This document shows positions 4,256 to 54,001 of a DNA stretch of 64,000 nucleotides, piece by piece. The stretch is from Clostridia bacterium. Its GTDB lineage: Bacteria; CBDUZB01; JAGLHV01. Position 1 is the stretch's first letter. Each line of letters opens with the position of its first letter. Below the pieces are notes generated by a model. It saw only the letters and a list, made by a program, of their open reading frames with translations. It had not been told where the DNA came from and searched no databases. The translations under genes were made by a program, and so were the position numbers. The stretch lies in assembly GCA_030637025.1 (NCBI GenBank), contig DAOVVV010000010.1:2257-66256 (forward strand), written 5' to 3'.

Positions 4256-4290
4256 TTTATTTAGTATGTAGTATTTATTCTGTATTTTTA

Positions 4291-4334
4291 TCTATGGACT
4301 ATCGACTGTGGACTATGGACTGTCTTTATTTTTT
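4291..4334. repeat. 44-bp unit tctatggactatcgactgtggactatggactgtctttatttttt, copy 1 of the 'tccatag' family
   Basis: Exact direct repeat of 4414-4457. Reverse-complement copies of the 34-bp core are at 36779, 41667, 41719, 41805 and 52157. Confidence 0.85.
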
Positions 4335-4413
4335 GTTTTGAATTTTGGATTTTGAATTTAGAATTTGTTTAGGATTTCGGATTTAGTATTTAGAATTTAT
4401 TTTTTGTTTGTTG

Positions 4414-4457
4414 TCTATGGACTATCGACTGTGGACTATGGACTGTCTTTATTTTTT
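4414..4457. repeat. 44-bp 'tccatag'-family unit, copy 2
   Basis: Identical to 4291-4334. Confidence 0.85.
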
Positions 4458-4507
4458 TAGTATTTCGAATTTAGTATTTATTTTAGATTTTTGTAAAATA
4501 CAATATT

Positions 4508-4582
4508 CTGTCATTCCGCACTCGATGCGGAATCTATAATGTTTTTAAATATCAATAGATTCCTGCTTCCGCAGGAATGACA
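4508..4582. repeat. Composite REP-like element: two opposed hairpins (gtcattccgcactcgatgcggaatc … gattcctgcttccgcaggaatgaca) bounded by inverted tgtcattcc/ggaatgaca termini
   Basis: About 90% identical to 47755-47829. Each arm is a perfect 8-9 bp stem-loop. Confidence 0.85.
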
Positions 4583-4597
4583 AACCGGAGGATATAA

Positions 4598-5509: not shown

Positions 5510-5668
5510 TTAATTTACTAAATCTCTTTCCCCTTTGTCCAAATTTGTCAACCGTCGTTATTATCCCCCTTCATAATTTTATCTTTTAATCAATCCAACC
5601 AATCTAATTGCTGTTAAACTGCTACATCATTCCCGCGAACAAACTATGTCACAATTCCCTTTTTAAAA

Positions 5669-5700
5669 CAATTGTAGGGGCGACATTTATGACGCCCGTT
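5669..5700. repeat. Family C hairpin repeat caattgtaggggcgacatttatgacgcccgt
   Basis: Second copy at 10029-10062. Stem ggcgacat/atgacgcc. Confidence 0.8.
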
Positions 5701-5730
5701 GAAAGCGACAGGAATAGACTCCTGCTTTCC

Positions 5731-5850
5731 AGACTGTGTCATAACTCATATTTTCATGTGGTAGCCGCAGGCTTTAGCCTGCGTTATCGTCGGAGCTTTT
5801 CCGCAGGCTAAAGCCTGCGACTACCAAAAAAGGGATTATGACACAGTCTG
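5731..5850. repeat. Nested palindrome: outer IR agactgtgtcataa/ttatgacacagtct enclosing a 23-bp-stem hairpin gtagccgcaggctttagcctgcg…cgcaggctaaagcctgcgactac
   Basis: Read directly. Each arm also contains the internal palindrome gcaggc-ttta-gcctgc (cruciform-capable). Confidence 0.8.
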
Positions 5851-6068
5851 TTCGCAGGAGTGACATTGATTTATTATTGTTGTCGTTCCCAATGTTGTTT
5901 CCCGCCTTTGAAAAAAGTGTAAACGATGTCCCCGGTTTAAAATGTAAACCATGTTTGTGTTGCACATTTGTTAGATACCCCACAGCAAGTTAATTTAAAT
6001 TTTGCCATGTAAAAAATCTTATCTCTTTATGTGTGTTTTTTTCATCCCCGGAAATTTATTATTTTTTT

Positions 6069-6097
6069 CTTGACAATATTTATCTGTTAAAGTATTA
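6069..6097 (+). promoter_or_regulatory. Canonical sigma70-type promoter (TTGACA-N17-TATTAT) upstream of 6156
   Basis: ttgaca 6069-6074, 17-nt spacer, tattat 6092-6097. Confidence 0.55.
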
Positions 6098-6155
6098 TTT
6101 AAATTAAGTAAAGCGACATTAAAACGATAGGGTTTAAGAAAAAGCAGGTAATTAT

Positions 6156-7698: not shown

Positions 7699-7713
7699 TT
7701 AATGGGAGGAAGG

Positions 7714-8997: not shown

Positions 8998-9031
8998 GTA
9001 GCCGCAGGCTTTTAGCCTGCGTTATCATCGG
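8998..9031. repeat. gtagccgcaggcttttagcctgcgttatcatcgg repeat (family B)
   Basis: Matches 5761-5793 and 13376-13408. Preceded by a degenerate (atgt[ag]gttatgt) tract. Confidence 0.8.
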
Positions 9032-9090
9032 ATTTAAAATTTCGGATTTATTCTATATGTTTAGTATTTATTCTTTGTCTTTTTTATTTT

Positions 9091-9117
9091 GTCATTCCTG
9101 TGCAAACAGGAATCTAT
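9091..9117. repeat. REP-like hairpin gtcattcctgtgcaaacaggaatctat (family A)
   Basis: 9-bp stem attcctg(t/c)…caggaat. The same sequence is at 10096-10122. Confidence 0.85.
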
Positions 9118-9935: not shown

Positions 9936-9970
9936 TCCCCCCTTTGGAAAAGGGGGCTAGGGGGATTTTA
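9936..9970. terminator. Repeated poly-C/G hairpin element (ttcccccctttggaaaagggggctagggggatttt) at the 3' end of the Wza-like gene; probably a transcription-terminator-type repeat
   Basis: Copies at 40983-41019 (reverse), 42098-42131 (reverse) and 50658-50694. Stem cccccttt/aaaggggg. Confidence 0.5.
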
Positions 9971-10028: not shown

Positions 10029-10062
10029 GCAATTGTAGGGGCGACATTTATGACGCCCGTCC
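10029..10062. repeat. Family C repeat copy
   Basis: gcaattgtaggggcgacatttatgacgcccgtcc. Confidence 0.8.
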
Positions 10063-10095
10063 AAAACCTGTTGATGCGGAATCTGTAAAATATCT

Positions 10096-10122
10096 GTCAT
10101 TCCTGTGCAAACAGGAATCTAT
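10096..10122. repeat. Family A REP hairpin
   Basis: gtcattcctgtgcaaacaggaatctat. Confidence 0.85.
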
Positions 10123-10175
10123 TTTTTGTCTTTAGAATTTGCTGGAGCAGAGAGACGAAGCAATTTTAAACTGTT

Positions 10176-10202
10176 GTCATTCCTGCGAAAGCAGGAATCT
10201 AT
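10176..10202. repeat. Family A REP hairpin (gtcattcctgcgaaagcaggaatctat), preceded by the ttgctggagca…gcaattttaaa module
   Basis: Module+hairpin 10135-10202 recurs at 11307-11369. A related fragment is at 9123-9175. Confidence 0.85.
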
Positions 10203-10982: not shown

Positions 10983-11112
10983 TCGGTATTCCTGCTTTTC
11001 CCCCTTGACAAAGGGAAATCGAAAAGGCCCTTTTTTGGCAAATATAAGTTTTTAATTGAAAGCCCTATTATTTTAATATTTTTTAAAGTATTTGTCCATT
11101 ATTTTTATTTCT

Positions 11113-11138
11113 GTCATTCCTGCGAAAGCAGGAATCTA
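11113..11138. repeat. Family A REP hairpin
   Basis: gtcattcctgcgaaagcaggaatcta. Followed at 11147-11200 by the variant gtcattccgctccgcctgaggcg…gataaggcgg. Confidence 0.85.
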
Positions 11139-11342
11139 AAACAGTTGTCATTCCGCTCCGCCTGAGGCGCTTGTCCGCCTCTGGAGGAGATAAGGCGGAT
11201 ATAGAATTTAGATATTAGTATTTATTCTTTGCATTTGTTTCTGTCTATGAACTGTCTTTTATATTTATCTGTTGTCTTTGTCTATGGACTATTTCATTTA
11301 GAATTTTGCTGGAGCAAAGAGACGGAGCAATTTTAAAGTGTT

Positions 11343-11369
11343 GTCATTCCTGCGAAAGCAGGAATCTAT
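11343..11369. repeat. Family A REP hairpin
   Basis: gtcattcctgcgaaagcaggaatctat. Confidence 0.85.
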
Positions 11370-11438
11370 TCTTTGTCGTCTTTAGTTTTTTAACTAATAA
11401 CTAATAACTAATAACTGTAGTTAAAAGGAGGAACCCAA

Positions 11439-13301
11439 ATGTTTAACCAAAACGAAGAAGTTCATTTAAAAGATTACCTGGAAATAATTATTCAAAGAAG
11501 ATGGATTATAATAACCTTTTTCTTAGTAATGCTTACCACCGTTACTATCGGCACATTTCGTCAGATTCCCATTTATCAAGCCACGGCAACAGTGCTTATC
11601 GATAAAGAAAGCCCCAATATCATTGCGGTTAAAGATGTAATGACGCTGGGTTCACCCGATTATTACGCCTATAAAGATTATCTGGAAACCCAGAAATTTG
11701 TTATTACCAGCAGGCCGGTTATCAAAAAAGTATACGAAGATTTAAATCTTTTTCTTCAGCCTGAATATAAAGAAACAAGTGATCCGCTCAATGTTCTGCA
11801 GAAAAAAGTAAAAGTAGAAAATATCAGAAATACCCGCCTGGTAAAAATCAATGTAGAAGATGCAGACCCTCAATATGCAGCAAAAATCGCCAATGGTATT
11901 GCTGATGTTTATATCTCTAAAAATTTAAATCGCCAAATGGTTGTTTCAGTTGAAGCTAATGAATGGCTTTCTCAAGAGCTGGACCGTCTTAAAAGCAAGG
12001 TAAAAGAATCAGAAGAGGCTCTTCAACAATATCGTGTGCAAAACAATATCATTTCTCTGAATGAAAAAGAAGAAGTAATTAATAAGGCGTTAAGTCTACT
12101 GACCAATGAACATTTAATGATGCAGGCAAAACTTGTTGAATACAAAAAGATTTATAAATATAAAAACCCTAAAATGATTCGACTTAATAAAGAACTTGAT
12201 GAATTAGGAAAAAGTTTAGCCCGGGAACGAAAAAGCGCCTTGGATTACGAACGAAAGGCTATAGAATATGGGGTGCTGGAAAGAGAAGTAAGAAGTAATA
12301 AAGAACTGTTTGAGTCTGTGTTAAAACGGGTTAAAGAAACTACTCTATCCGAAACAATAAAGGCAAACAACATCAGTATTCAGGAACGGGCAAAAGTTCC
12401 TTTAAGCCCAATAAAACCCCGGAAAAAATTAAATATCATTCTGGCCTGTCTGGTAGGTGCTGTAGGAGGAATAGGTTTAGCCTTTTTCTTTGATTATTTA
12501 GATAACAGTATTAAGACACCCGAGGATGTGGAAAAATATGTCCAATATCCTTTCTTAGGATATATCCCGGCAATAGAATCCGACAAAAAAGATACAATTG
12601 TTCAATTAGAGCCTAAATCAGGGGTAGCTGAAGCTTACCGTACTTTACGCACCAGTATTCTTTTTTCTTCCTCCGACCAGGTAGCTACCAAAAGTATTTT
12701 AGTTACCAGCCCGGGACCGGGAGAGGGAAAAACCATTACAGCATCTAATTTAAGTATAACTATGGCTGTAGGAGGAAGCAGGGTTCTTTTAGTTGATTCC
12801 GATATGCGTAAACCCAGGGTAAATAAAATATTTGACTTAAAAAATGATATTGGCTTGAGTAATTTTTTAGTAGGTCAGGCCGGACTGGATGAAATTGTTA
12901 AAGGAACAGGAATTCAAAATTTATCCGTAGTATCTTGCGGGCCTCGTCCGCCTAATCCGTCTGAGTTACTTACTTCCTTACAAATGATTGATTTTATCAA
13001 ACAGGCCACTGAAAAATTTGATAAGGTAATATTTGATTCACCGCCTTTAGGAGTAGTCACCGATGCTAATATTTTAGCCAAAATAGTAAGCGGGGTTATA
13101 CTGGTATTTCAGGGAGGTAAAACTTCCAGGAATATAATTCCCAGAATCAGACAGTTGTTAACAAATGCCCAGGCCCGGGTATTAGGAGTAACCATCAATA
13201 ATCTCCGCCAGGAAAGAAGCGGATATTATAATTATTATTACTACAACTATCAATATTACGGCAAAGAAGACGAAAAAAAAGAAACACCCGAACAAGTTTA
13301 A
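11439..13301 (+). CDS. Wzc-like chain-length determinant fused to a bacterial tyrosine (BY) kinase
   Basis: Two TM helices flank a Wzz-like periplasmic coiled-coil region. Walker A VTSPGPGEGKT, Walker A' VLLVDSDMRKPR, Walker B VIFDSPP. C-terminal tyrosine cluster YYNYYYYNYQYY. Confidence 0.85.
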   Translation: MFNQNEEVHLKDYLEIIIQRRWIIITFFLVMLTTVTIGTFRQIPIYQATATVLIDKESPNIIAVKDVMTLGSPDYYAYKDYLETQKFVITSRPVIKKVYEDLNLFLQPEYKETSDPLNVLQKKVKVENIRNTRLVKINVEDADPQYAAKIANGIADVYISKNLNRQMVVSVEANEWLSQELDRLKSKVKESEEALQQYRVQNNIISLNEKEEVINKALSLLTNEHLMMQAKLVEYKKIYKYKNPKMIRLNKELDELGKSLARERKSALDYERKAIEYGVLEREVRSNKELFESVLKRVKETTLSETIKANNISIQERAKVPLSPIKPRKKLNIILACLVGAVGGIGLAFFFDYLDNSIKTPEDVEKYVQYPFLGYIPAIESDKKDTIVQLEPKSGVAEAYRTLRTSILFSSSDQVATKSILVTSPGPGEGKTITASNLSITMAVGGSRVLLVDSDMRKPRVNKIFDLKNDIGLSNFLVGQAGLDEIVKGTGIQNLSVVSCGPRPPNPSELLTSLQMIDFIKQATEKFDKVIFDSPPLGVVTDANILAKIVSGVILVFQGGKTSRNIIPRIRQLLTNAQARVLGVTINNLRQERSGYYNYYYYNYQYYGKEDEKKETPEQV

Positions 13302-13329
13302 ATCGTCATTCCGCTTGTGTTTTTATATT

Positions 13330-13356
13330 GTCATTCCGCACTTGATGCGGAATCCA
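13330..13356. repeat. Family A REP hairpin (gtcattccgcacttgatgcggaatcca)
   Basis: Same arm type as 4510 and 47757. A half-copy cgtcattccgcttgtg lies just upstream at 13304. Confidence 0.8.
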
Positions 13357-13375
13357 TTTTTTATGTGGTTATGTG

Positions 13376-13408
13376 GTAGCCGCAGGCTTTAGCCTGCGTT
13401 ATTGTCGG
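13376..13408. repeat. Family B repeat gtagccgcaggctttagcctgcgttattgtcgg
   Basis: Matches 5761 and 8998. Confidence 0.8.
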
Positions 13409-13484
13409 AGCAGAGCTTTGCAAATCTGCCTCAGGCATGATATTCTGCTTGTTCTTTAGTTTTTTATCTGTTGTCTTTTTTTTT

Positions 13485-13511
13485 GTCTTTCCTGCGAAAG
13501 CAGGAATCTAT
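13485..13511. repeat. Family A REP hairpin (gtctttcctgcgaaagcaggaatctat)
   Basis: Followed by the hairpin cctctctccttgtgggagagg at 13523-13545. Confidence 0.8.
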
Positions 13512-13572: not shown

Positions 13573-16113
13573 ATGAAAACAAAAATATTCGACCAAATAA
13601 TAGAAGCACTAATTATTTCCCTAATCATCATAACCCCGTTTATTTTTGTTCCTTTACGGGAATATGCATCAACCATAACCAACATTACAGCTATAATACT
13701 CCTTATGGTCTGGATGACCAAAATGATTTATGCCGGAAAAATAACCATTGTTAAAACCCCGTTAAACTGGATAATTTTATCTTTCCTTTTTTTAGGAATC
13801 TTACAGGTCATAGGTTTTAACAAAAATTTATTATGTATTCCCTCCACTGTTTATCAATATCCCACCATACTAAAAATCTTAGATATTTTAAGTCTGGCAA
13901 TAATTTTTTGGGTAATAATAAATAATTTTACTAAAAAATCCCAGATAAACCGCATTTTGACCGTAATAATTTTTATGGGTTTTTCCTTAAGTTTTCTATG
14001 TATTTTGCAGCATTTAAGCAAAGGTGGTAATACTTTTTTAGGCATAAAACCTATGTATGCAAGGTCTAAGTTTTTTGGTCCCTACATCAACGGTAACCAT
14101 TTTGCTGCTTATTTAGGAATGATTGTTCCCCTATCTATAGGGATGGGATTAGCTGAAATAAAAAAAAGTAAAAAACTATTATTCTGGTTTGTTGGAATAA
14201 TTATGGCCTTAGGGCTTTTATTTTCTCTTTCCAACGGGGGAATAGTTTCCTTTATAGGAGCAATGATTTTTCTTTTTATTTTTTTAAACAGCAGAAAATC
14301 TACTCAAAAAGGAAAATGGATTATTGCTACTGTTCTTTGTCTGGTTATTATGGGTGTTATTTGGTTGGGGGTTAGCCCGGTAAAAGAAGAGGCATCTCAG
14401 CTCTTTCAATTTAATCAATCAGAATCATTTCAATCCCGCTGGCCCGTATGGAAAGCAAGCATAAAAATGCTAAAGGGAAACTGGTTGTTGGGTACAGGAC
14501 TGGGTACCTTTCGTTATGTCTTTCCAAAATTCAGGCCTCCCGGAATAAACAGAGAATTCAGATATGTCCATAACGATTACTTAGAAGTTCTTCTAAATAC
14601 AGGTATTGTAGGATTTCTTATACTGTTTTTAGGTGGATTTTATTATTTTCGTAATATCCTTAAAAAATTTTATAAAAGACGAAATCCTTATATCATAGCA
14701 ATATCCTGTGGTCCCATCACTGCCTTATTTTCAATGTTACTGCATAGTTTTGTTGACTTCAACTTACAAATAGGTCCCAATGTTTTACTTTTTATTATTA
14801 TTACCGCTATTACTATTCAAATATTAAAACTTAGAAATGAAAATAAAGATACTAAATCCCCATTGGATAACTTAATAGTAATAAAAGAAAGAACGACCAA
14901 TATTTTCCTTACTGGATGGCAAAAGCCACTTGTCGTAGGAATTACCGGGATTATTTCAGTATTTCTAATATTAACATTAATAAAACCCGCCAGAGCCACC
15001 CATTATTACAATTGCTATGTCATTGAGAGGGGAGCAAACAAGGAATCAATCTCCAACAAAACTGTCATTGCGAGGAGGGTAACCAACGAATCAATCTCCA
15101 ATGAAACTGTCATTGCGAGGAGATCCAACGACGAAGCAATCTCAAAGAACAACAAAAACGTCATCTCAAGCTTAGAAAAAGCGATAGAGTTAAACCCTTT
15201 AAATGCACTTTATCACTATAAACTTTCCTTAGAATATTTAAAGAAAAAACCACAAAACAAAAACATTAAAAATTCTTTAAAAGAAATGAAACAGGCAATA
15301 TATCTTAATCCAACAAATGCAAAGTATCACCTGACTCTTGCCATGCTCTACAGCCAATTGGCAAATTGGCCCATTACCCATCAGCCATCAAAGGACGATT
15401 ACATAAAGTTAGCTCATCAGGAATTCCAGCAAGCAATTTATTTAGCACCTAATACCCCCTATGGACATAAAAACTATGCTGATTGGCTTTTTACCCAACC
15501 TATCAAGGAGAACATCGAAAAAGGAATTGTTGAGTATAAAACGGCGATTACTTTAAAGCCGGAGTTGACTGCTAATGCTCTTGGTTTTTGTTATAACTTA
15601 ACCCATAACTATAATTTATTATCAGAAATAATACCGGATACAACCGATGGTCATTTCACTTTAAGAAAATACCTTATTAAAAAAGGATTAAAAGAAAAAG
15701 CTTTAGAGGAAGAAAATATTATATTAGATAAAATAACAGAAGAGCTTTCTTTTGCGGAAAATAAAAAAGAAGTTTACCAAAAAGCAGGACAAATTTATCA
15801 TGACTTAGGAAGATTTAACGAAGCAATAAAAGTGTATCACGAAGCTATGGACCTTGGTTTACAAAACAGTTGGTCTTATTATCGTCTTGCAGATAGCTAT
15901 AGAAAATTAGGTAAGATGGATTTAGCTATAAAATATTTTAAACTTTCATTAGAATTAGATGAAGAGAACTGCTGGGCATACTTTAGTTTAGCACGAACAT
16001 ATCAAGGTTTAGGCAAAAAAGCTGAGGCAGAATCAATGTGGCAGGAAATTATTAATTTAAAAAATGCAGATTCTGATGCTAAACGGATAGCTAAAAGGGA
16101 ATTAAAAAAATAA
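13573..16113 (+). CDS. O-antigen ligase/Wzy-family polytopic membrane protein fused to a C-terminal TPR domain
   Basis: About 11 TM helices carrying a Wzy_C-like loop (…SFIGAMIFLF…HNDYLEVLLNTGIVGF…). C-terminal ~330 aa has TPR-like repeats (…NPLNALYHYKLSLEYL…, …AIKVYHEAMDLG…, …YFKLSLELDEENCWAYFSLA…). A 45-bp in-frame tandem repeat lies in the linker. Confidence 0.75.
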   Translation: MKTKIFDQIIEALIISLIIITPFIFVPLREYASTITNITAIILLMVWMTKMIYAGKITIVKTPLNWIILSFLFLGILQVIGFNKNLLCIPSTVYQYPTILKILDILSLAIIFWVIINNFTKKSQINRILTVIIFMGFSLSFLCILQHLSKGGNTFLGIKPMYARSKFFGPYINGNHFAAYLGMIVPLSIGMGLAEIKKSKKLLFWFVGIIMALGLLFSLSNGGIVSFIGAMIFLFIFLNSRKSTQKGKWIIATVLCLVIMGVIWLGVSPVKEEASQLFQFNQSESFQSRWPVWKASIKMLKGNWLLGTGLGTFRYVFPKFRPPGINREFRYVHNDYLEVLLNTGIVGFLILFLGGFYYFRNILKKFYKRRNPYIIAISCGPITALFSMLLHSFVDFNLQIGPNVLLFIIITAITIQILKLRNENKDTKSPLDNLIVIKERTTNIFLTGWQKPLVVGITGIISVFLILTLIKPARATHYYNCYVIERGANKESISNKTVIARRVTNESISNETVIARRSNDEAISKNNKNVISSLEKAIELNPLNALYHYKLSLEYLKKKPQNKNIKNSLKEMKQAIYLNPTNAKYHLTLAMLYSQLANWPITHQPSKDDYIKLAHQEFQQAIYLAPNTPYGHKNYADWLFTQPIKENIEKGIVEYKTAITLKPELTANALGFCYNLTHNYNLLSEIIPDTTDGHFTLRKYLIKKGLKEKALEEENIILDKITEELSFAENKKEVYQKAGQIYHDLGRFNEAIKVYHEAMDLGLQNSWSYYRLADSYRKLGKMDLAIKYFKLSLELDEENCWAYFSLARTYQGLGKKAEAESMWQEIINLKNADSDAKRIAKRELKK
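15040..15147 (+). repeat. In-frame 45-bp (15-aa) tandem repeat (2.4 copies) within the Wzy-TPR gene linker. Contains ctgtcattgcgagg, reminiscent of the REP family A arm.
   Basis: aaggaatcaatctccaacaaaactgtcattgcgaggagggtaacc / aacgaatcaatctccaatgaaactgtcattgcgaggagatccaac / gacgaagcaatctca. Encodes KESISNKTVIARRVTN-ESISNETVIARRSND-EAIS. Confidence 0.8.
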
Positions 16114-33566: not shown

Positions 33567-33634
33567 ACTATAAAAATCCATAGTTTACTTTAAGGCATCA
33601 AAGTAAACTATAAAAATCCATAGTTTACTTTGAT
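33567..33634. repeat. Two tandem copies of the hairpin aagtaaactataaaaatccatagtttactt (11-bp stem), between Fic and RAYT
   Basis: Read directly. Perfect palindromic arms. No U-tail. Confidence 0.8.
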
Positions 33635-33726: not shown

Positions 33727-34695
33727 GATTATCCAGGAGCTCTGCACCATGTAATTGGAAGAGGGATAGAAAGAAGTAAAATATTTGAAGAGGATACGGA
33801 TAAGGAAAAGTTTTTACTTCGATTAAAGTTACTATTAGATAAGAGTGGTATGCAATGTTATGCATGGTGTATTATGGATAATCATTTTCATTTGTTACTT
33901 CTTACCGGGAAAACCCCGTTATCAGAATTCATGAGAAAATTACTAACGGGATATGCTGTTAATTATAATAAAGAGCACAAGAGAATTGGTCATTTATTTC
34001 AAAATAGATATAAATCAATATTATGTGATAGGGATGAATATTTGTTGCCGCTAATAAGATATATACATTTAAATCCGGTAAGAGTGAAAAAAGTGGAGAT
34101 AAATAAATTGCCTGGATATAAATGGACAAGTCATAAAGAAATGATAAATAAGCAGAAGAAAGAAGATAAATTAATAGAAGCAGAAGAAGTCTTGGGATAT
34201 TTTGGGAAGAGGAGAAAGGAATCAATAGCAGGATATGTAGAATATGTTAGAGAAGGAAAAGAATTAAGAGAAGATTATGGGGGAGGGGGATTAATAAGGA
34301 GGGCAGGAGGAATAAAAGAAATATTGAAGAGAAAAGCTGAGGAGCGAGAGCTGTATGATGAGCGGATATTAGGGTCGGGAGGATTTGTAGAAGAAACCTT
34401 GAGGAGGATGGAGCAAGAAGAAGATAAATATCCAAAGATCAGGAATATAGAGGAGCTAATAGGGAGAATCAGCAGGTATTATGGTATAGAAGTAGAAGAG
34501 ATAATAGAAACGAGGAAAAAGAAAGTAAGAGAAGCGAGGAGTGTATTAGTATATTTGGCGAGTAAATATTTAAAGGAAACAGGGGTAAAAATAGGAAAGT
34601 TGTTGGGAGTAGGAAAAGGAGCGATAAGTATAGCAAAAGAAAAAGGTAGAAATTTTTGTAAAGAGAAAGGGATTGAGGGGCACATATTACAATAA
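33706..34695 (+). mobile_element. REP-associated tyrosine transposase (RAYT; IS200-like Y1 HuH family) with a C-terminal DnaA-C-like HTH extension. Intact.
   Basis: HuH motif (DNHFHLLL), catalytic-Tyr region (FQNRYKS), and the RAYT-specific Y-I-H-L-N-P-V-R motif. No IS terminal inverted repeats. Surrounded by REP-like hairpins. Its own TTGACA-N17-TAAACT promoter is at 33671-33699. Confidence 0.75.
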
Positions 34696-34950
34696 ATTAA
34701 ACAATTGAGCAGCGTCCTTAAAATGATATGATAGGTTTTATTGAAAGCAAAAAATATTTTATGCAATAGTAAATGTTGTTTTGTACATAAAATATTGTTG
34801 TTTTGTGCATAATTGTATGGTATAGGATTTTGAAGCACAACGGAGTTTACTTGGTTGACTTAAAGGGAAAATTAGTAAACGGTCTTAGAATAAAAGAATT
34901 GGAGTTAGATTTTTACATTTTACATTAAAGATAAAAATAATGCTAAATGG

Positions 34951-34977
34951 ATAGATTCCTGCTTTTGCAGGAATGAC
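34951..34977. repeat. Family A REP hairpin in reverse orientation (atagattcctgcttttgcaggaatgac), directly downstream of the RAYT
   Basis: Read directly. Followed by the ccgcctcaggcgg module. Confidence 0.85.
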
Positions 34978-35007
34978 CCGACTAATCCTCCGCCTCAGGC
35001 GGATAAG

Positions 35008-35056
35008 GCGGAGCGGGCAGGCAACAAGGGAAGAAGGCTATTTTGCAGAAGGCTAA
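35008..35056. repeat. About 50-bp gene-proximal module …agcgggcaggcaacaagggaagaaggctattttgcagaaggctaa
   Basis: Also at 47845-47890 and 48604-48650. Each copy ends 30-100 bp upstream of a start codon (35153, 47919, 48674). Confidence 0.75.
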
Positions 35057-35152
35057 ATGCTCATTAAAATAAGGAGGGGACAGTTGGTTGTATGTTTTTC
35101 CATATGGTAAAATTATAAAAATTAAACGAGAAGGGTTAAGGAGAGATTTATT

Positions 35153-35620: not shown

Positions 35621-36529
35621 ATGGAAATTTTGATTGTTTTTTTGGGTAGTTTGTTGGTTTCTTTGTTGATGATACCTTTGATAATGAAAATAGCAATAAA
35701 GAAAAGTTTTTTTGACCGGCCGGAAAATGTTTTAAAAATCCACAAAGAGCCCATCCCGCATTTGGGAGGGGTGGCTATTTTTATTAGTTTGGTGGTGGGG
35801 TTAATTACTGCCGGTTTTTTATTGGAATCATTTAAGTTTGCCGGAATTATAAGTATGGTTGTTGCTGCGGGTATAGTTTTTTTTATGGGTTTATGGGATG
35901 ATTTTAAAGAAGTTAAACCTGTTTATCGGTTTATAGCCCAGATAAGTGCAGGAATTATTCTGGTTTTGTCCGGATATAAAATAGGTTTTGTCAATTGTCC
36001 GGGTTTGAGCGGGATTTTGATTGTTCTTTATGTTTTAGGTTCGATAAACAGTATGAATTTACTGGATGGGATAGATGGATTAGCTGCCGGGGTGACCTTA
36101 ATTATTGGCTTGGGATTTTTAACGGCTTTTATTATGCAGGCTAATTTTTTTGGAATAGTTGTATCACTTATCTTTATTGGGGCGGTATGGGGTTTTTTAC
36201 CTTATAATTTTCCTAAAGCGTTTATATTTATGGGAGATAACGGAAGTACGCTTCTGGGGTTTATCTTAGCTTTTTTAGCCATAAATCTTGCTCAGTCCTC
36301 TGAGTTTAGCTGGTTTATTGCCTCGGTTGTGATTATGGGAGTGCCTATCATTGACACAGCGGTAGCAATTGCAAGGAGAATAATAAAGAAACGGCCGATT
36401 TTCCAGGGGGATCGCAGTCATATTTATGATTGGTTAATGGATAAAGGGATGAGTTCGAAAGAAACGGTATTTATTTTTTGCATAGCGGGGTTTGTTTTTC
36501 TTGTTATAGGATTGGTGGTGGGGGTATAA
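35621..36529 (+). CDS. Polyprenyl-phosphate HexNAc-1-phosphate transferase (WecA/MraY family, GT4-PNPT), the initiating phosphoglycosyl transferase
   Basis: Polytopic. Conserved PNPT motifs: …FMGLWDDFKEVKP…, NSMNLLDGIDGLAAG, FMGDNGSTLLGF. Start at 35621 (aggagtaaag-ATG) preferred over the track start at 35582. Confidence 0.8.
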   Translation: MEILIVFLGSLLVSLLMIPLIMKIAIKKSFFDRPENVLKIHKEPIPHLGGVAIFISLVVGLITAGFLLESFKFAGIISMVVAAGIVFFMGLWDDFKEVKPVYRFIAQISAGIILVLSGYKIGFVNCPGLSGILIVLYVLGSINSMNLLDGIDGLAAGVTLIIGLGFLTAFIMQANFFGIVVSLIFIGAVWGFLPYNFPKAFIFMGDNGSTLLGFILAFLAINLAQSSEFSWFIASVVIMGVPIIDTAVAIARRIIKKRPIFQGDRSHIYDWLMDKGMSSKETVFIFCIAGFVFLVIGLVVGV

Positions 36530-36778
36530 AGACGGTTAAAAGGCGGTTGAATTGGTTTAGATTGGTTTTATTGGTTAGAAAAGAAAAGATAAAAGACAGT
36601 TAAAGACAGTTAAAGACAGTTGGAAAAGACGGTTAAAAGGCGGTTGAATTGGTTTAGATTGGTTTAATCGGTTAGAAAAGAAAAGATAAAAGACAGTTAA
36701 AGACAGTTGGAAAAGACGGTTAAAAGACGGTTGAATTGGTTTAGATTGGTTTTATTGGTTGAAAAGATAAAAGAGACC
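36527..36778. repeat. About 87-bp tandem repeat, ~2.9 copies (aaagacggttaaaaggcggttgaattggtttagattggttttattggttagaaaagaaaagataaaagacagttaaagacagtt…)
   Basis: Read directly. Partial related copies at 50549-50622 and 52228-52268. Confidence 0.85.
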
Positions 36779-36896
36779 TAAAGACAGTCGATAGTCCATA
36801 GACTACAGATAAAGACAAAAGACAAAGACAAAGACAAAGACAAAGACAAAAGACAAAAGACAGAGACAGAGACAGAGACAACGACTAAAGACAAAG
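36779..36896. repeat. 'tccatag' unit (reverse orientation) followed by an (AAAGAC)n/(AGAGAC)n hexanucleotide tract of ~85 bp
   Basis: taaagacagtcgatagtccatagactacag, then aaagacaaaagacaaagacaaagacaaagacaaagacaaaagacaaaagacagagacagagacagagac. Confidence 0.85.
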
Positions 36897-36897
36897 A

Positions 36898-36924
36898 ATA
36901 GATTCCTGTTTGCACGGGAATGAC
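36898..36924. repeat. Family A REP hairpin in reverse orientation (atagattcctgtttgcacgggaatgac)
   Basis: Reverse complement of the 9091 type. Confidence 0.8.
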
Positions 36925-37000
36925 AAGATAAAAAAGACAAAGAATAAAGAGACAGTTCATAGACAGAAACTACGATTATAAATTAGGGGGGAGAAGCAAG

Positions 37001-40983: not shown

Positions 40984-41019
40984 AATCCCCCTAACCCCCT
41001 TTTTCAAAGGGGGAAAAAC
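40983..41019. terminator. Poly-C/G hairpin element copy (aaatccccctaaccccctttttcaaagggggaaaaac) after gene 40117-40983
   Basis: See 9936. This orientation has a T-run after the C-stem. Confidence 0.5.
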
Positions 41020-41054: not shown

Positions 41055-41693
41055 ATGAATCAAAAAAATGTTTTCGCAGGGAAGAGAAAGTATTATTTCA
41101 TTAATGAGTATTTTCAGATAAAAGACATATTGAAAGTTTGTTTTTTGGTAGTTGTCGGATGTGTTATTTTTGCTGCAATTATATATCTTTTTTCAAAGCA
41201 GACGATGACTACTTCTTTTGAAAATTCCCGTTTAGTGTTGAAAAGTACGGCGGATTTTATTTTTCCTGCTCTTGTTTCCAGTATGATTGTGGTAATTACG
41301 GTGTTAAGTATTATTTGCCTTATAGTAGTTTTATTTGCTTCTCAAAATATAATAAGGCCGATGTGTATTTTAGCCGGGAAGGTCAAGGATATGGGTGAAG
41401 GGGACCTTACTTTAACTATTAATTCAACGGCTCAGGTTGAAATGGGAGAAGTGGTTGGAAATTTTAATGAAATGCTTGAAAAACTTAAAAGCCGTATATT
41501 GCAAATAAAAGGAATAAACGGTGAATTAGGAGAAAACATTGAAAAATTAAGGAAAATACGCGGAACCTGTTCACAAGAAGAAGCTAAATTAATAGAAGAG
41601 TTATTGAAAAAACAAGAAGAAATAAGTGAGAGGCTTGCTTATTTTAAAACGGAGAGTAAAGACAAAAGACAGTCCATAGTCCACAGTCAATAG
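41055..41693 (+). CDS. Small membrane protein with two TM helices and a HAMP domain; no output domain
   Basis: TM1 (VCFLVVVGCVIFAAIIYLF) and TM2 (FIFPALVSSMIVVITVLSIICLIVVLFA), followed by a HAMP-like IIRPMCILAGKVKDMGEGDLTLTI…FNEMLEKLK. The last 12 codons and the stop lie inside the intergenic repeat mosaic. Confidence 0.55.
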   Translation: MNQKNVFAGKRKYYFINEYFQIKDILKVCFLVVVGCVIFAAIIYLFSKQTMTTSFENSRLVLKSTADFIFPALVSSMIVVITVLSIICLIVVLFASQNIIRPMCILAGKVKDMGEGDLTLTINSTAQVEMGEVVGNFNEMLEKLKSRILQIKGINGELGENIEKLRKIRGTCSQEEAKLIEELLKKQEEISERLAYFKTESKDKRQSIVHSQ

Positions 41694-42200
41694 TCCATAG
41701 TCCATAGATAAAGAATAAAGACAGTCCATAGTCCACAGTCAATAGTCCATAGACAAAGACAAAGACAAAGACAAAGAATAAAGAATAAAGAATAAAGAAT
41801 AAAGACAGTCTATAGTCGATAGTCGATAGTCCATAGACAAAGAATAAAGATAGTCCATAGATAAAGACTAAAGAATAAATACTAAATTCAAAATACAAAA
41901 TTCTAAACAAAGACAAAGAATAAAAATAAATACTAAATAACAACTTTAAACAAAGCAAGCTTTGCAACTACTGGATTCCGCATCATCCGCCTCAGGCGGA
42001 GCGGAATGACAACATAAAAACATAAATTCAAAACAAAGACAAAGACAAAAGATAAAGAGTAAAAACAGTCCATAGAACAGAAACAAATGCAAAGAATAAA
42101 TCCCCCTAACCCCCTTTTCCAAAGGGGGAAACTCAATGAGGGCTGTTGCTTTGCTCCAGCAAAATAAAGAGAAGACGGTAAAGATAGTCCATAGACAGAA
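41660..42200. repeat. About 540-bp mosaic repeat block: 3 'tccatag' units, (AAAGAC)4, (ATAAAGA)4, an aaatactaaattc module, a ccgcctcaggcgg/ggaatgac hairpin, the poly-C/G hairpin (42098-42131) and a ttgctccagcaa module
   Basis: All sub-modules have copies elsewhere in the window. The block overlaps the last codons of the HAMP gene. Confidence 0.85.
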
Positions 42201-42425
42201 GATGCAGTTATAAGTTATTAGTTATGAGTTTTTAGTTAAAAAAGTTTGAAGTTTGAAGTTGGGATTTGGGAATTTGAAAGAAGAGTCAAACATAGTTTAT
42301 GACAATGTATGACGCGAACGAAGTGAGTATATGACTATTTGTGACAGTGATTGTAAAGCAAGCAAAATACTAATCTGTAATGAGGAATAACAAATTGGTT
42401 AGGGTGAATAGCAATTGGGGAGATT

Positions 42426-47720: not shown

Positions 47721-47754
47721 AAAATATTTTAAGTCTTCTGCGAAATAACACATT

Positions 47755-47829
47755 CTGTCATTCCGCACTTGATATGGAATCTATAATGTGCTTGAAATAT
47801 CAATAGATTCCTGCTTTCGCAGGAATGAC
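47755..47829. repeat. Second copy of the 75-bp composite REP-pair element
   Basis: ctgtcattccgcacttgatatggaatctataatgtgcttgaaatatcaatagattcctgctttcgcaggaatgacc versus the copy at 4508. Confidence 0.85.
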
Positions 47830-47844
47830 CCTCTTTAAGGACTG

Positions 47845-47890
47845 GCGGGCAGGCAATAAAGATAAAAAGACTATTTTGCAAAAGTCTAAA
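47845..47890. repeat. 50-bp gene-proximal module copy (ggcgggcaggcaataaagataaaaagactattttgcaaaagtctaa)
   Basis: See 35008. Confidence 0.7.
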
Positions 47891-47918
47891 AATATTTAAA
47901 AAAAGGAGGTAATATAAA

Positions 47919-48512: not shown

Positions 48513-48587
48513 GATTGTATGGCCTTGCATAGTTGATTTCATTTGTTAATTTTGTATAATTAAAAGGGTAGGAATGACCCGTCTTAT

Positions 48588-48650
48588 CCGCCTGAGGCGG
48601 AGCGGGCAGGCAAAAAAGGTAAAAAGGCTATTTTGCAGAAGTCTAATTAT
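48588..48650. repeat. ccgcctgaggcgg hairpin plus a 50-bp gene-proximal module copy
   Basis: ccgcctgaggcggagcgggcaggcaaaaaaggtaaaaaggctattttgcagaagtctaa. Confidence 0.75.
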
Positions 48651-48673
48651 TTTATAGGAAAGGAGGGGTTTTT

Positions 48674-50548: not shown

Positions 50549-50694
50549 AAAAAGACAGTTGGAAAAGACAGTTAAAAGACAGTTAAATTGGTTGAATTGG
50601 TTTTATTAGTTTAGATTGGTTCAAAGACAAAAGACAAAAGACAAAGATAAAGACAATCTTTTCCCTCTTTGAAAAAGGGGGTTAGGGGGATTTA
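50549..50694. repeat. Mosaic: a partial 87-bp-family copy, an (AAAGAC)n tract (50623-50656), and the poly-C/G terminator-like hairpin (50658-50694)
   Basis: Read directly. Lies after yjbQ. Confidence 0.8.
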
Positions 50695-50752
50695 TGATTA
50701 TTTATGATACTGCTTGTGAGACAGGCAAATTAAAATGTTTTTGAGTTTATAG

Positions 50753-51319
50753 ATGGATATACGTATAATCGGTGGTATTGCCAGGGGGAGAAAATTAAAA
50801 TCTCCTTCAAGTTTTTCTACAAGGCCTCTTTTAGGAAGGGTTAAAAAATCATTATTTGATATACTTTCTCCGTATATAAAGGATTCTTATTTTTTGGATC
50901 TTTATGGCGGGGTGGGAAGTGTAGGTGTTGAAGCTCTTTCCAGAGGGGCAAGAAAAGCGGTTTTTGTAGAAAACGATTCTGATTGTATAAGCCTGATTAA
51001 GGAAAATTTAGCCAAGTGTGGTTTTGAAGATAAAGCAGAAATTTATCAGGGAGATGTATTAGGGGGATTAGCTTTTCTTTTATCGGAAGAAAAGTTTGAT
51101 TTGGTTTTTGTGGGCCCGCCTTATAATTTAAATCTTTTGGAAAAAACTATAAAAATTATTGATGAAACTAAAATCTTAAAAGGAAAAGGATTAGTAATCG
51201 GACAACATCATTTTAAAGAAGTAATACCTCAAAAAATAGGAAATCTAGGAATGTTTCGCCAGAAAAAATACGGAGACATGAGATTGAGTTTTTTTAAAAT
51301 AGGGGGTAAGCTTGAGTGA
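50753..51319 (+). CDS. rsmD: 16S rRNA (guanine966-N2)-methyltransferase
   Basis: RIIGGIARGRKLKSP…RPLLGRVKKSLFDIL…LDLYGGVGSVGVEALSRGA…VGPPY motifs. Confidence 0.8.
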   Translation: MDIRIIGGIARGRKLKSPSSFSTRPLLGRVKKSLFDILSPYIKDSYFLDLYGGVGSVGVEALSRGARKAVFVENDSDCISLIKENLAKCGFEDKAEIYQGDVLGGLAFLLSEEKFDLVFVGPPYNLNLLEKTIKIIDETKILKGKGLVIGQHHFKEVIPQKIGNLGMFRQKKYGDMRLSFFKIGGKLE

Positions 51320-52152
51320 AAAAAATAATCGTGTTGACTAATCCCCAAAAAAAAGAAGTTAAGAGTATTTTCCCTTCCCTGGTAAATTGGTTGGAAAAGA
51401 AAAAAATAGAGGTTTCAGTAAACCAGACCGGTAAAGAGAATTTTAAAAAAACGGATTTGGTGGTTGTTTTAGGTGGGGATGGAACAATATTAAAAGCAGC
51501 AAGATTGGTGGTGCCTTTTGGGATTCCCGTTCTGGGAATTAATTTGGGAGAATTTGGGTTTTTATCCGGAATAAATGTTAAAAGTCTGTATTCTACCCTG
51601 GAGCGGATTTTAAAGAAGGATTATTATATAGAGGAAAGGATTCTTCTCACTGCTAAGGTAATAGGTCCATTATCCTCTAATAAAAAGAATAACTCGAAGT
51701 TTTTTTTCTTATCTTTAAATGATATAGTCGTTAAAAATGCGAGTTCAGCAAGAGTAATTAAGTTAAAAGTAAAACTGGGAAGTAAACAAATTACCCAATG
51801 GGTGGGAGATGGGTTAATTGTGGCTACTCCCACGGGTTCAACGGCATATTCATTAGCCGCCTTTGGACCCATTGTTTATCCAACTCTGCCGGTGTTAATT
51901 ATTACTCCGATTTGTCCTCATCTTTTATCGTTCAGGTCTTTAGTATTACCGGCCGGTGAATTAATTTCTATTCAAGTGGATTCTGGAAAGAATGTGATGC
52001 TTTCTGTAGATGGCCAGGAAGAAATGAATTTGGGATATAATGATATTATTGAGATAAAACAGGCGAAGAAAAAACTTAAATTGGTTTGTTTATCTGGGAA
52101 TGCGGATTATTTTCAGATTTTAAATAAAAAACTTAAATGGGGAAAAAGGTAA
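51316..52152 (+). CDS. nadK: NAD+ kinase, GTG start overlapping the rsmD stop
   Basis: GGDGT motif (VVLGGDGTILKAA), NDIVV, and DGLIVATPTGSTAYSLAAFGPIV signatures. Confidence 0.85.
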   Translation: MKKIIVLTNPQKKEVKSIFPSLVNWLEKKKIEVSVNQTGKENFKKTDLVVVLGGDGTILKAARLVVPFGIPVLGINLGEFGFLSGINVKSLYSTLERILKKDYYIEERILLTAKVIGPLSSNKKNNSKFFFLSLNDIVVKNASSARVIKLKVKLGSKQITQWVGDGLIVATPTGSTAYSLAAFGPIVYPTLPVLIITPICPHLLSFRSLVLPAGELISIQVDSGKNVMLSVDGQEEMNLGYNDIIEIKQAKKKLKLVCLSGNADYFQILNKKLKWGKR

Positions 52153-52156
52153 AAAA

Positions 52157-52275
52157 ACAGTCCATAGTCCACAGTCGATAGTCCATAGACAAAGACAAAG
52201 AATAAATACTAAATTCGAAAGTCAAATAAAAGACAGTTTAATTGGTTGAATTGGTTTAGATTGGTTCAAAGACAA
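52157..52275. repeat. Mosaic: 'tccatag' unit, (AAAGAC)2, an aaatactaaattc module, and a partial 87-bp-family copy
   Basis: Begins 5 bp after the nadK stop. Confidence 0.8.
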
Positions 52276-52327
52276 AAGATAAAGGTAAAGATAAAAAATT
52301 TAAGATTTAAAATTTGGGAGTTAAAAA

Positions 52328-54001
52328 ATGTTGTTGGAATTGTCAATAAATAATTTTGCTATTATTTCTGATTTACAAATCTCTTTTGACCATGGGTTAA
52401 ATATTCTTACCGGTGAAACCGGTGTGGGTAAATCAATTATTATCGATGCTTTAAATTTAATTCTGGGTGAGAGGGCTTCTTCGGATTTAATTAGAAAGGG
52501 AAGTCAGACCTGTGAAGTGCGTGCGATTTTTAATCTTAAAGAAAACAAAGATTTGAGAGATTTATTAAGAGGTATAATCGGCTCTGATTTCGATGAAAAA
52601 GAAGTTCTTATAAGTAGACAATTAAGCAGGGAAGGAAGGAATCGTTGTTTTGTTAATAGTTATCTTACCAGCTTGTCTGTCTTACAGTTGATAGGAGAAA
52701 AACTGGTCGATGTTCACGGACAACATGAACATCAGATTTTATTAAAGAACAGAGAACAGCTAAATGTTTTAGATAGTTTTGCTAACCTTTTTTCTTTGCG
52801 GGAAAATGTTTCATTTTTGTGTAAACAATATAAAGGGCAAAAAGAAGAAAGAGATAAACTTATAACATCTGAGGAAGAAAGAAAGCGCAAAATTGATTTG
52901 TATCAATATGAGATAGAAGAAATCAATCAGGCAGAACTTGTTTCGGGGGAAGAAAAAGAAATAGAAGAAGAATATCAGGTATTAACTAATGCACAGGAGT
53001 TATCTTCTCTTTACTCGGGTGTTTATGAAAAGTTGTATGAAAAGGAAGAATCTGTTCTTGATATGCTTAAATCTATTCAAAAAAATTTAAAAGTAATTAC
53101 GAGCATTGATGGTGAAGTAGAAGATGTTTTAGAAAACATAAATAATGTTTTTTTTGAATTGGAGGAGATAGGAGAAGATGTTCTTGGATTTAAGGAAAAA
53201 ATCAGGTTTAATTCTCCGCGATTGGAACAAATCTTAGAAAGAAAGGATTTAATTCTTAAATTAAAAAGAAAATACGGAGGTAGCATTGAGAAGATATTGG
53301 AATATAAAGAAAAAATGGAAAAAAGATTAAAACAAGTACTTTCCTATGAAGAGAGTAAAGAAGAAATAGAGAAAGAAATAAAAAAAACAGAACAAGAACT
53401 GGGTAAGTTAGCTAATAATTTGTCCGGGGAAAGACGGAAAACAGCAAAAATTTTGGAAAAAAGAATAAATAATCAGTTGCATTCTTTATCTATGGATAAA
53501 GTAAAATTCGTAATAGGGTGTAAAGACATTGAATTGAATTTTAGTGGTTTAGACCGGATAGAATTTTTAATTTCTTCCAATGTCGGAGAGGATTTAAAGC
53601 CGATTAGTTCAATTGCTTCCGGAGGAGAAATGTCCCGGATTATGCTTGCCTTAAAAACTGTTTTAGCTAAAGCAGATGCTGTTCCCTGTCTTGTATTTGA
53701 TGAAATAGATGCGGGTATTAGCGGGGGAGTGGCAAAAACCATAGGGGAAAAATTAATCGAACTGGCTGATATTCATCAGCTAATTTGTATTACGCACTTG
53801 CCTCAGATAGCCGGTTTTGCCTCTGCACATTTTTATGTAACCAAACAAGTAGAGAAAGGCAGGACTATAACGCTGGTTAAAAAATTAACCGATGAAGAAA
53901 GAATTAATGAGATTGCCCGTATGCTGGGAGGAGACGAAGTTAGTGCTCTTACTTTAAAACATGCTCAGGAAATGGTGAAACAATCAAAAAAATCAAAATA
54001 G
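52328..54001 (+). CDS. recN: DNA repair protein RecN
   Basis: N-terminal Walker A (LTGETGVGKSIIIDAL), long coiled coil, and C-terminal ABC signature/Walker B (…SGGEMSRIMLALK…LVFDEIDAGISG). 557 aa. Confidence 0.85.
   Translation: MLLELSINNFAIISDLQISFDHGLNILTGETGVGKSIIIDALNLILGERASSDLIRKGSQTCEVRAIFNLKENKDLRDLLRGIIGSDFDEKEVLISRQLSREGRNRCFVNSYLTSLSVLQLIGEKLVDVHGQHEHQILLKNREQLNVLDSFANLFSLRENVSFLCKQYKGQKEERDKLITSEEERKRKIDLYQYEIEEINQAELVSGEEKEIEEEYQVLTNAQELSSLYSGVYEKLYEKEESVLDMLKSIQKNLKVITSIDGEVEDVLENINNVFFELEEIGEDVLGFKEKIRFNSPRLEQILERKDLILKLKRKYGGSIEKILEYKEKMEKRLKQVLSYEESKEEIEKEIKKTEQELGKLANNLSGERRKTAKILEKRINNQLHSLSMDKVKFVIGCKDIELNFSGLDRIEFLISSNVGEDLKPISSIASGGEMSRIMLALKTVLAKADAVPCLVFDEIDAGISGGVAKTIGEKLIELADIHQLICITHLPQIAGFASAHFYVTKQVEKGRTITLVKKLTDEERINEIARMLGGDEVSALTLKHAQEMVKQSKKSK

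Follow-up and report, generated by a model that had tools for sequence, protein, structure and literature searches.

Neisserial intergenic mosaic elements (NIMEs) reportedly consist of arrays of 50–150-bp repeat units, each flanked by dRS3-type inverted repeats, and work on the biology of the Ssn single-strand nucleases has to date been confined to Neisseria and a few proteobacteria. Here, a 64,000-nt stretch of contig DAOVVV010000010.1 from an uncultured bacterium (the window, always meaning the whole stretch) was compared with these and related systems; its intergenic spacers carry nine families of small repeats (modules A to I), and it contains a Y1 transposase gene at 33706–34695. Together with 8.6 kb upstream and 5.2 kb downstream of the window, the analysis covered approximately 78 kb of the genome. 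The NTS of Neisseria is a 28-nt, dRS3-containing sequence (CGTCATTCCCGCGMAVGCGGGAATCYRG, PMC11893778); NTS-type hairpins flank small GIY-YIG nucleases of the Ssn family and are cut by them as single-stranded DNA (Chenal 2025, PMC11893778). Among the repetitive extragenic palindromic (REP) sequences, the CGTC-1 class includes dRS3 of Neisseria and RPE-6 of Rickettsia, and TGTC is accepted as its tag (Di Nocera 2013, PMC3733652); the class is defined by an 8-bp stem starting with AT, a 4-nt loop and the predominance of head-to-head dimers (PMC3733652). CGTC-type REPs are explicitly not associated with tyrosine transposases and are never flanked by them (PMC3733652). Subclass 2.1.2 of the Y1 proteins is the TIRYT class, in which terminal inverted repeats flank the gene and no REPs were found nearby (PMC6006769, PMC3733652). 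Repeats of 7 bp have been noted in cyanobacteria (PMC2670836). The window is best filed as a known kind of landscape, in which CGTC-1/NTS-type hairpins, GTAG-tagged REPs and simple-repeat arrays occur together, here in a deep-branching lineage. With a probability of roughly 70%, its spacers form a mosaic of unrelated repeat families resembling NIMEs and the bacterial interspersed mosaic elements (BIMEs) of E. coli, with module A as a CGTC-1/NTS-type hairpin and the Y1 gene as part of a separate TIRYT cassette.

Module A was represented in the window by 13 full hairpins and three to four partial or composite copies (Table 1). It consists of an unpaired TGTC tag, an 8-bp stem beginning with ATTCC, a 4–5-nt loop and a CTAT tail; TGTC was found in nine copies and GGTC in two. 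The three stem/loop variants reported in the preliminary description were recovered, and the inner three stem pairs co-vary among them (TGC/GCA, TGT/ACA, GCA/TGC). A structural CGTC-1 scan of the window (8-bp stem starting with A-T/T-A, 4/5-nt loop) gave nine hairpins versus 0.08 in dinucleotide shuffles, and the module hairpins folded as single-stranded DNA with z-scores of −3.9 to −6.5. Head-to-head doublets are present twice in the window and once just outside it (15578–15649 of L266), though most copies in the window are singletons. Module A is identical to the Neisseria NTS at 24 of 28 positions, the chief difference being a compensatory exchange of a C-G for a T-A stem pair (ATTCCTG/CAGGAAT versus ATTCCCG/CGGGAAT). 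As far as can be judged from the nucleotide sequence, module A is a CGTC-1/NTS-type hairpin, and the earlier likening of the region to the Neisseria dRS3 landscape was apt.

The hairpin was then traced in other organisms by a scan of one genome per species with the query GTCATTCCTG-N6-CAGGAATCTA, using 8-kb stretches and phyla assigned by record titles. The exact hairpin was present in at least 120 stretches from approximately 15 phyla, in many cases as inverted doublets. Because of this span it is not lineage-specific, a property that had been considered for the family. The matches listed came from Bacteroidota, Ignavibacteria, Alpha-, Beta- and Gammaproteobacteria including Rickettsia, Campylobacterota, Planctomycetota, Chloroflexota, many Patescibacteria, Elusimicrobia, Nitrospirota, Actinomycetota, Omnitrophus, Spirochaetota, Armatimonadota, Fusobacteria and Zixibacteria. 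In an Ignavibacteriaceae, a Hyphomicrobiales and a Planctomycetota genome (L062, L087 and L106, respectively), inverted copies of the exact hairpin bracket a 96-aa GIY-YIG gene of the Ssn type (PF01541) at a distance of 6–35 nt. A Y1 gene was found in just one of the 120 A-bearing stretches among the matches listed.

The last result bears on the proposal in the preliminary description that the Y1 gene of the window encodes the cognate REP-associated tyrosine transposase (RAYT), by which the modules would be mobilised as REP/REPIN elements. The 329-aa gene product matches Pfam families PF01797 (Y1_Tnp, E = 1.6e-11) and PF08299 (Bac_DnaA_C, E = 1.6e-8) and has the HUH motif and the catalytic Tyr (NHFHLLL, RYIHLNPV). 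Some of its homologues are labelled 'RayT' by JGI, the GTAG tag of modules B and C is one that typifies the substrates of RAYTs (PMC3733652), and the A hairpins form REPIN-like inverted doublets. These likenesses are outweighed by the score obtained with the NCBIfam model REP_Tyr_transpos (57.2 bits versus a cut-off of 80) and by published surveys, which found no REPs near subclass 2.1/TIRYT genes. No module flanks the Y1 gene, the nearest A hairpin lying 256 nt downstream and none upstream. Modules A to I were absent from four homologous loci (L006–L009, approximately 77 kb in total), one of which (L006) carries an 80%-identical homologue; the expected co-occurrence of RAYT and REP was not seen. 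Hairpins of the CGTC type have no link with tyrosine transposases, and for module A mobilisation by this protein is already contradicted. The Y1 gene is thus very unlikely to be the cognate RAYT.

The features of the Y1 gene itself fit the TIRYT class. It is flanked by its own inverted repeats, and the homology to the 80%-identical copy, which lies in a different genomic context, comprises 33648–34717, extending beyond the coding region by 58 nt on the start-codon side and by 22 nt on the stop-codon side. Terminal inverted repeats of 34 nt are found in L006 and L007, and the ends in the window align to them with gaps. All homologues have an (A)GGGGACGTTG...TTGACA box upstream of the gene, and the inverted complement of this box closely follows the stop codon; the core of the inverted repeat (GGGGACGT in homologues, GGGACGTA in the window) agrees with the published GGGGWSAS motif at only six of eight positions. 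This motif is not dispersed in the window and is unrelated to modules A to I. A decayed second copy of the Y1 and DnaA_C coding region lies at 61877–62230, with in-frame stop codons, internal deletions and a retained right inverted repeat (ttaacaatgtcccc, approximately 62212–62225). A solo left end of the cassette at 32175–32260 (inverted repeat, 5′ untranslated region and the first 20 nt of the reading frame) is 92% identical to 33640–33725, and a third end-like motif follows at 32262–32300. The decayed copy and solo ends indicate the behaviour of an insertion sequence (IS) and not that of a domesticated single-copy RAYT. By these characters the Y1 gene is assigned to a separate, self-contained TIRYT ('TIRtron') element that is not the agent of the repeats; taking such a neighbouring gene for a RAYT would lead to annotation of the wrong enzyme–repeat pair.

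Between the solo left end with the third motif (upstream) and the intact cassette (downstream) lies a Fic (protein adenylyltransferase-like) gene (32415–33566), the stop codon of which is followed by two 32-nt hairpin units (33567–33631, dG −13.3 kcal/mol, z −6.1). Homologues of the Y1 and DnaA_C protein are encoded directly after RHS/YD-repeat toxin fragments in L007 and L009–L011 and beside a PhdYeFM/ParE toxin–antitoxin pair in L008; variable islands rich in toxins seem to accumulate such cassettes. At least 7986 homologues were found, many in metagenome-assembled genomes (MAGs) of Omnitrophota. An assignment of the host to this phylum from the transposase relatives was rejected: a transposase is mobile and its relatives therefore say little about the host, and the nearest relatives of RecN from the window are from MAGs classified only as 'bacterium' (48% identity), the nearest named ones being from Elusimicrobiota (43–46%).

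The window has a G+C content of 32%, a GC skew that is positive along its whole length, and nearly all of its genes on the plus strand. Its genes include those for Tol-Pal/TonB components, a capsule/exopolysaccharide cluster, RecN and one tRNA-Ala, which was the sole match to Rfam; none was obtained for the modules. Using repeat finding, Tandem Repeats Finder and pattern counts, all nine modules were recovered at or next to the positions reported before. Self-matches of the window (blastn) covered 2699 of 7326 non-coding nucleotides (37%) versus 182 of 54381 coding nucleotides (0.3%), which bears out a dense intergenic mosaic of small repeats. Two statements in the preliminary description went too far. 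The 13 spacers listed there do contain repeats, yet to say that they are built almost entirely of modules is an overstatement, as detectable coverage ranged from 16 to 89% per spacer (for example, 16% in 5510–6155 and 19% in 34696–35152). Likewise, not almost every spacer above 100 bp is repeat-derived: repeats were present in 15 of the 21 spacers of at least 100 nt, and none was detected in the other six (6978, 17622, 27321, 45277, 49328 and 50000). The gene block from 13.6 to 32 kb was free of repeats, and further module copies were found in both flanks of the window.

The mosaic is not an assembly artefact, because the locus recurs with 99.8–100% identity in independent assemblies from approximately 10 metagenome samples of one study. 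Seven mapped ends of short-read contigs lie in or at the edge of repeat-rich spacers (4258, 4392, 5700, 5812, 42403, 48524 and 52237), which fits multi-copy sequence; other mapped ends lie inside genes (6961 and both ends of contig L005). Because of the mosaic, short-read assemblies break at predictable places. When a spurious 107-aa mosaic open reading frame (ORF) was used as protein query for other repeat-bearing contigs, no matches were obtained, and none of 240 loci taken from other organisms contained module B, C, E, F or H.

Table 1. Repeat modules and the transposase cassette in the window
Feature	Position	Strand	Remarks
D heptamer array	4285–4457	−	two 50-nt copies (96% identical) around a GAATTT/GGATTT simple-repeat tract
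A head-to-head doublet	4509–4583		plus-strand copy TGTC-ATTCCGCA-CTCGA-TGCGGAAT-CTAT, 21-nt spacer, then minus-strand TGCGGAAGCA variant
C, GTAG-tagged hairpin	5672–5699	+	GTAGGGGCGACATTTATGACGCCC
148-nt nested palindrome	5715–5862		core 5760–5826 is a doublet of GTAG-tagged B hairpins
B, single GTAG-tagged hairpin	8998–9022	+	
A hairpin	9090–9117	+	variant TGTGCAAACA
H hairpin	9937–9966	−	opposite orientation
C, second copy	10033–10060	+	
A hairpin	10095–10122	+	variant TGTGCAAACA, followed by T-run (terminator-like)
A hairpin	10175–10202	+	variant TGCGAAAGCA; within 105-nt repeat, 91% identical to 11305–11409
A hairpin	11112–11139	+	variant TGCGAAAGCA
Composite	11146–11200	+	A 5′ half (GTCATTCCGC) joined to I-type CCGCCTGAGGCG hairpins
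A hairpin	11342–11369	+	variant TGCGAAAGCA
A hairpin	13329–13357	+	variant GCACTTGATGC
B, single GTAG-tagged hairpin	13375–13399	+	
A hairpin	13484–13511	+	tag variant TGTCTTTCC
Putative TIRYT cassette, approximately 1.1 kb	33640–34726	+	left inverted repeat 33640–33675, gene 33706–34695, right inverted repeat approximately 34690–34726; outside the mosaic
A hairpin	34951–34979	−	GGTC tag; copy closest to the transposase, 256 nt past its stop codon, outside the cassette
I hairpin and GCGGGCAGGCA...TATTTTGCAGAAG module	34985–35077	+	family of three, with copies at 47845 and 48602
F, 87-nt tandem unit	36528–36795	+	1.9–3 copies; 10/11-nt sub-repeats AAAGACAGTT and GATTGGTTT
D heptamers, then E	36784–36897	+	(AAAGAC)n, 14.5 units at 36807–36897
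A hairpin	36898–36926	−	ATTCCCGT variant, one stem mismatch
H hairpin	40985–41016	+	CCCCCTAACCCCCTTTTTCAAAGGGGG
D heptamer arrays, E, (AAAGAAT)n, G	41653–41935	+	D periods 7, 14, 52 and 84; E is (AAAGAC)n
A-type stem	41975–42012	−	ATTCCGC/GCGGAAT and GACA; I hairpin in loop
E, D fragment, H hairpin, palindrome, heptamer module	42030–42245	+	H at 42100–42131; TTGCTCCAGCAA palindrome; TTATAAG/TTATTAG at 42200–42245
A head-to-head doublet	47756–47831		78% identical to the 4481–4549 doublet
GCGGGCAGGCA... module, second copy	47845–47909	+	ends at the ribosome-binding site of the next gene
Half A and I hairpin	48571–48600	−	half A GGAATGAC; I hairpin CCGCCTGAGGCGG
GCGGGCAGGCA... module, third copy	48602–48666	+	
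F-like and E arrays, H hairpin	50549–50700	+	H on minus strand, 50677–50689
D, E, G and F-like modules	52153–52327	+	upstream of recN; rearranged version in the orthologous spacer of L278

Hairpins B and C carry GTAG tags (six copies, namely four of B, two of them as the doublet, and two of C), a tag that the dominant hairpin A lacks. By this tag, B and C belong to the GTAG REP superfamily; some RAYT could mobilise REPs of this type, and none for B or C was seen in the region covered. H (four copies) and I (three copies and variants) are small G+C-rich hairpins, I being located in the loops of A-type stems. Modules D, E, F and G and the TTATAAG module are built as arrays whose periods are 6, 7 and 10/11 nt; their base composition is unequal between the strands, and as a group they resemble the cyanobacterial STRR repeats. 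The 34-nt unit of D is present in five copies next to shorter heptamer runs, G in three copies, and diverged copies of F lie at 50573 and 52218. The ORF at 41055–41693 runs into a D/E array (41655–41693), so that its last residues (...SKDKRQSIVHSQ*) and stop codon come from the repeat. The ORF at 13573–16113 contains three 45-nt tandem units (15018–15152), in frame and placed where a linker joins its O-antigen-ligase-like part to its TPR part; they start with TGTCATTG(A/C)GAGG, end with CAATCTC and are translated as VIARR...ESISN. Their appearance is that of TGTC-tagged repeat units that have decayed and become translated; an interpretation as hairpins was rejected since no significant folding was found.

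For module D, a 19-mer was present in at least 120 metagenome stretches with at least 107 distinct contexts and 32–72% G+C, in some cases in-frame inside conserved genes. Such in-frame AGTCCAY runs, encoding S(V/I)HSPQSIVHS, were seen on unrelated metagenome contigs in fabD-like (L208, L217), RHS-like (L197, L218) and truA-like (L139) genes; in the two fabD-like genes the run has the same position, directly before the GxSLGEY active-site motif. In viral contigs D was not more common than two control heptamer patterns (one match versus two, and four in two unique contexts), and a claim that D is enriched across lineages was set aside. Simple-repeat tracts of the GAATTTAGGATTT type, comparable with 4331–4404 of the window, are adjacent to doublets of the same hairpin, or contained in them, in an Elusimicrobia locus (L024, 40–190) and a Saccharibacteria locus (L071, 3660–3760). 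A cross-phylum link of G-like AAATyCyAAAT arrays with the hairpin was dropped as anecdotal (three of 29 motifs within 200 nt, at these two loci only).

The B doublet (dG −28.8 kcal/mol) is nested in the 148-nt palindrome (dG −51.4 kcal/mol), the outer arms of which end in half an A hairpin (GCAGGAATGAC) and recur upstream of the window around different cargo and hairpins. Composite palindromes of this sort, including the hairpin doublets, might be miniature inverted-repeat transposable elements (MITEs), deletion derivatives of a conventional IS with terminal inverted repeats that its transposase moves in trans; the long outer arms, their recurrence around different cargo, and IS110 and other transposases in related contigs speak for this. 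We find this origin very improbable. Neither a target-site duplication nor a matching full-length IS was seen, the half A hairpin at the ends of the arms makes them look like nested hairpin insertions, and the sole indel observed (see below) is bounded by a 17–20-nt repeat module and fits recombination over transposition.

This indel is a 131-nt block of modules that is present in the population assembly L256 and absent from the window and L257. The block, near position 9060 of the window, comprises a GTAG hairpin and an I-like one, a D fragment and a TTGCTGGAGCAA palindrome; its borders are formed by a 17–20-nt direct repeat of a module related to G, which is what recombination or slippage between modules would produce. 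The mosaics were almost invariant across the approximately 10 population samples. A further difference in L256, of one 7-nt unit, concerns the (TAACTAA)n tract at 11391–11416, just upstream of the gene at 11439–13301, a tract that could be slippage-prone near the start codon. A length difference between L256 and L257 upstream of the window was rejected as a polymorphism, as it represents a scaffold gap. Larger differences were found in relatives. In L278, a syntenic relative with 79% identical RecN, two orthologous spacers hold D/E/G mosaics in rearranged form, and a further mosaic, absent from the window, follows recN; A hairpins are lacking, and the counterpart of 47721–47918 measures only 30 nt. 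In the more distant L281 (RecN 68% identical) the spacer upstream of recN comprises 8 nt. The block in L256 and the gains and losses in the orthologous spacers of the relatives show that the mosaic turns over, on the time scale of genus-level divergence.

The module orientation is uniform from 4.2 to 13.6 kb, opposite from 34.7 to 52.3 kb, and flips again beyond 64.8 kb (L266, 15368–15705). These are two switches in 13 adjacencies (P ~0.011 under random orientation), and gene direction and GC skew are unchanged at the switch points. In a rival reading, the repeats would mainly serve the host in regulation or as structural DNA, whether as intrinsic terminators, as hairpins that stabilise mRNA, as spacers of promoters or as curved DNA, and selection would keep them in each spacer, in place of a spread as selfish or recombining repeats. 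At 4–14 kb, 17 terminator-like sites were counted versus 7.3 ± 2.7 expected, and six A or B hairpins on the transcribed strand have T-rich tails; the arrays of 10/11-nt period contain phased A-tracts, the mosaics are stable across the samples, and D/E/G modules were kept at two orthologous spacers in L278. At 34–53 kb, however, the modules point the other way while the genes keep their direction, and terminator-like sites show no enrichment (11 versus 9.7 ± 3.5), which renders a general regulatory role unlikely. Moreover, promoter-like sites were not enriched in either region, orthologous spacers of the relatives have no mosaic (30 nt, 8 nt) or a different one, and the identity of the A hairpin across approximately 15 phyla points to a shared protein partner and not to local regulation. 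Regulation is therefore an improbable explanation of the repeats as a whole, and some copies may be co-opted for it.

Under the preferred reading of a NIME/BIME-like mosaic with a separate TIRYT cassette, the A hairpins would form on single-stranded DNA and would be recognised and cut there by an Ssn-type GIY-YIG nuclease, encoded elsewhere in the genome, probably as a hairpin–ssn–hairpin unit. The arrays would expand and contract by slippage. Recombination between repeated modules would add, remove and rearrange whole blocks, and one such case was observed; hairpins nested in the loops of other palindromes were observed directly. Several points weigh against this reading. The published pattern for Ssn-related motifs (SRMs), HGTCWYN(0-2)YYVSBRHN(0-5)WNVSBRGN(0-2)RNCYNB, had no match in the window, and the strict dRS3 pattern ATTCCC-N8-GGGAAT does not match module A; both miss it because they do not allow the T/A stem pair. 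No Ssn/GIY-YIG gene (cd10448 type) was detected in the window or its flanks of approximately 14 kb (tblastn, E ≤ 1). We know of no organism for which the mode of multiplication of CGTC/NTS hairpins has been established, and of no agent for the simple-repeat modules. The near-invariance across the samples indicates low current mobility, and a random insertion model does not explain the domains of uniform orientation.

A more speculative idea addresses these domains. The short-period arrays (AGTCCAY, AAAGAC, AAAGACAGTT and GAATTTAGGATTT) might be a distinct class of elements shared by many lineages and made or copied together with Ssn-type hairpins by a strand-specific process on single-stranded DNA. 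We consider this improbable; if true, it would explain the uniform orientation over tens of kilobases, the similar arrays beside the same hairpin in the Elusimicrobia and Saccharibacteria loci, and the heptamer 19-mer in its many metagenome contexts.

The findings leave the knowledge of how such repeats work unchanged and correct an attribution: the dominant hairpin belongs, on the likenesses given above, to the family for which a connection with Ssn single-strand nucleases was recently described. Its occurrence in a Neisseria-like mosaic of a low-G+C, deep-branching uncultured lineage offers a possible comparison system. Surveys probably under-count the hairpin family in AT-rich genomes because the published patterns miss the compensatory stem variant.

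Compared with RAYT–REPIN systems of Pseudomonas and E. coli, the window shares GTAG-tagged hairpins (B and C), inverted doublets and a Y1-family protein in the neighbourhood; it differs in that the Y1 gene is not flanked by hairpins, scores below the RAYT model threshold and is not single-copy, and that the dominant hairpin is of the CGTC/TGTC-tagged type. With TIRYT/TIRtron elements, the cassette has in common the Y1 HUH domain with a C-terminal DnaA-like helix-turn-helix, the bracketing inverted repeats of approximately 34 nt starting with (A)GGGGACGT, the lack of adjoining REPs and more than one copy or remnant per genome; its deviating inverted-repeat core (6/8 to GGGGWSAS), the degraded right end and the Fic gene wedged between solo left end and element set it apart.

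The STRR repeats of cyanobacteria reportedly have the units AGTCCCC (STRR1) and AGTCAAC (STRR3). Module D resembles them as an intergenic array of tandem 7-nt units with an AGTC core (AGTCCAY in the window) and of unknown function; unlike STRR, the arrays in the window are short (3–12 units), mixed with other modules and not arranged as hairpins, and the host is not a cyanobacterium. As in NIMEs of Neisseria and BIMEs of E. coli, the spacers intersperse hairpin repeats with members of other repeat families, the order and orientation differing from case to case, and strains vary by gain or loss of blocks. In contrast to both, the units in the window are not regularly bracketed by hairpins, a large share is simple repeat of short period (6, 7 and 10/11 nt), which is no feature of NIMEs or BIMEs, and all modules within a domain of tens of kilobases point the same way. 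From NTS/dRS3 of Neisseria, module A differs by its stem (ATTCCTG/CAGGAAT) and CTAT tail, by the absence of an ssn gene from the 78 kb covered, and by its host, a 32% G+C, deep-branching uncultured bacterium that is not a proteobacterium. It agrees with them in the tag–stem–loop–tail anatomy, the ATTCC...GGAAT core with 24/28 identity, the head-to-head doublets and the clustering in intergenic mosaics, and a 96-aa GIY-YIG gene is enclosed by copies of the identical T-variant hairpin elsewhere, in the genomes named above.

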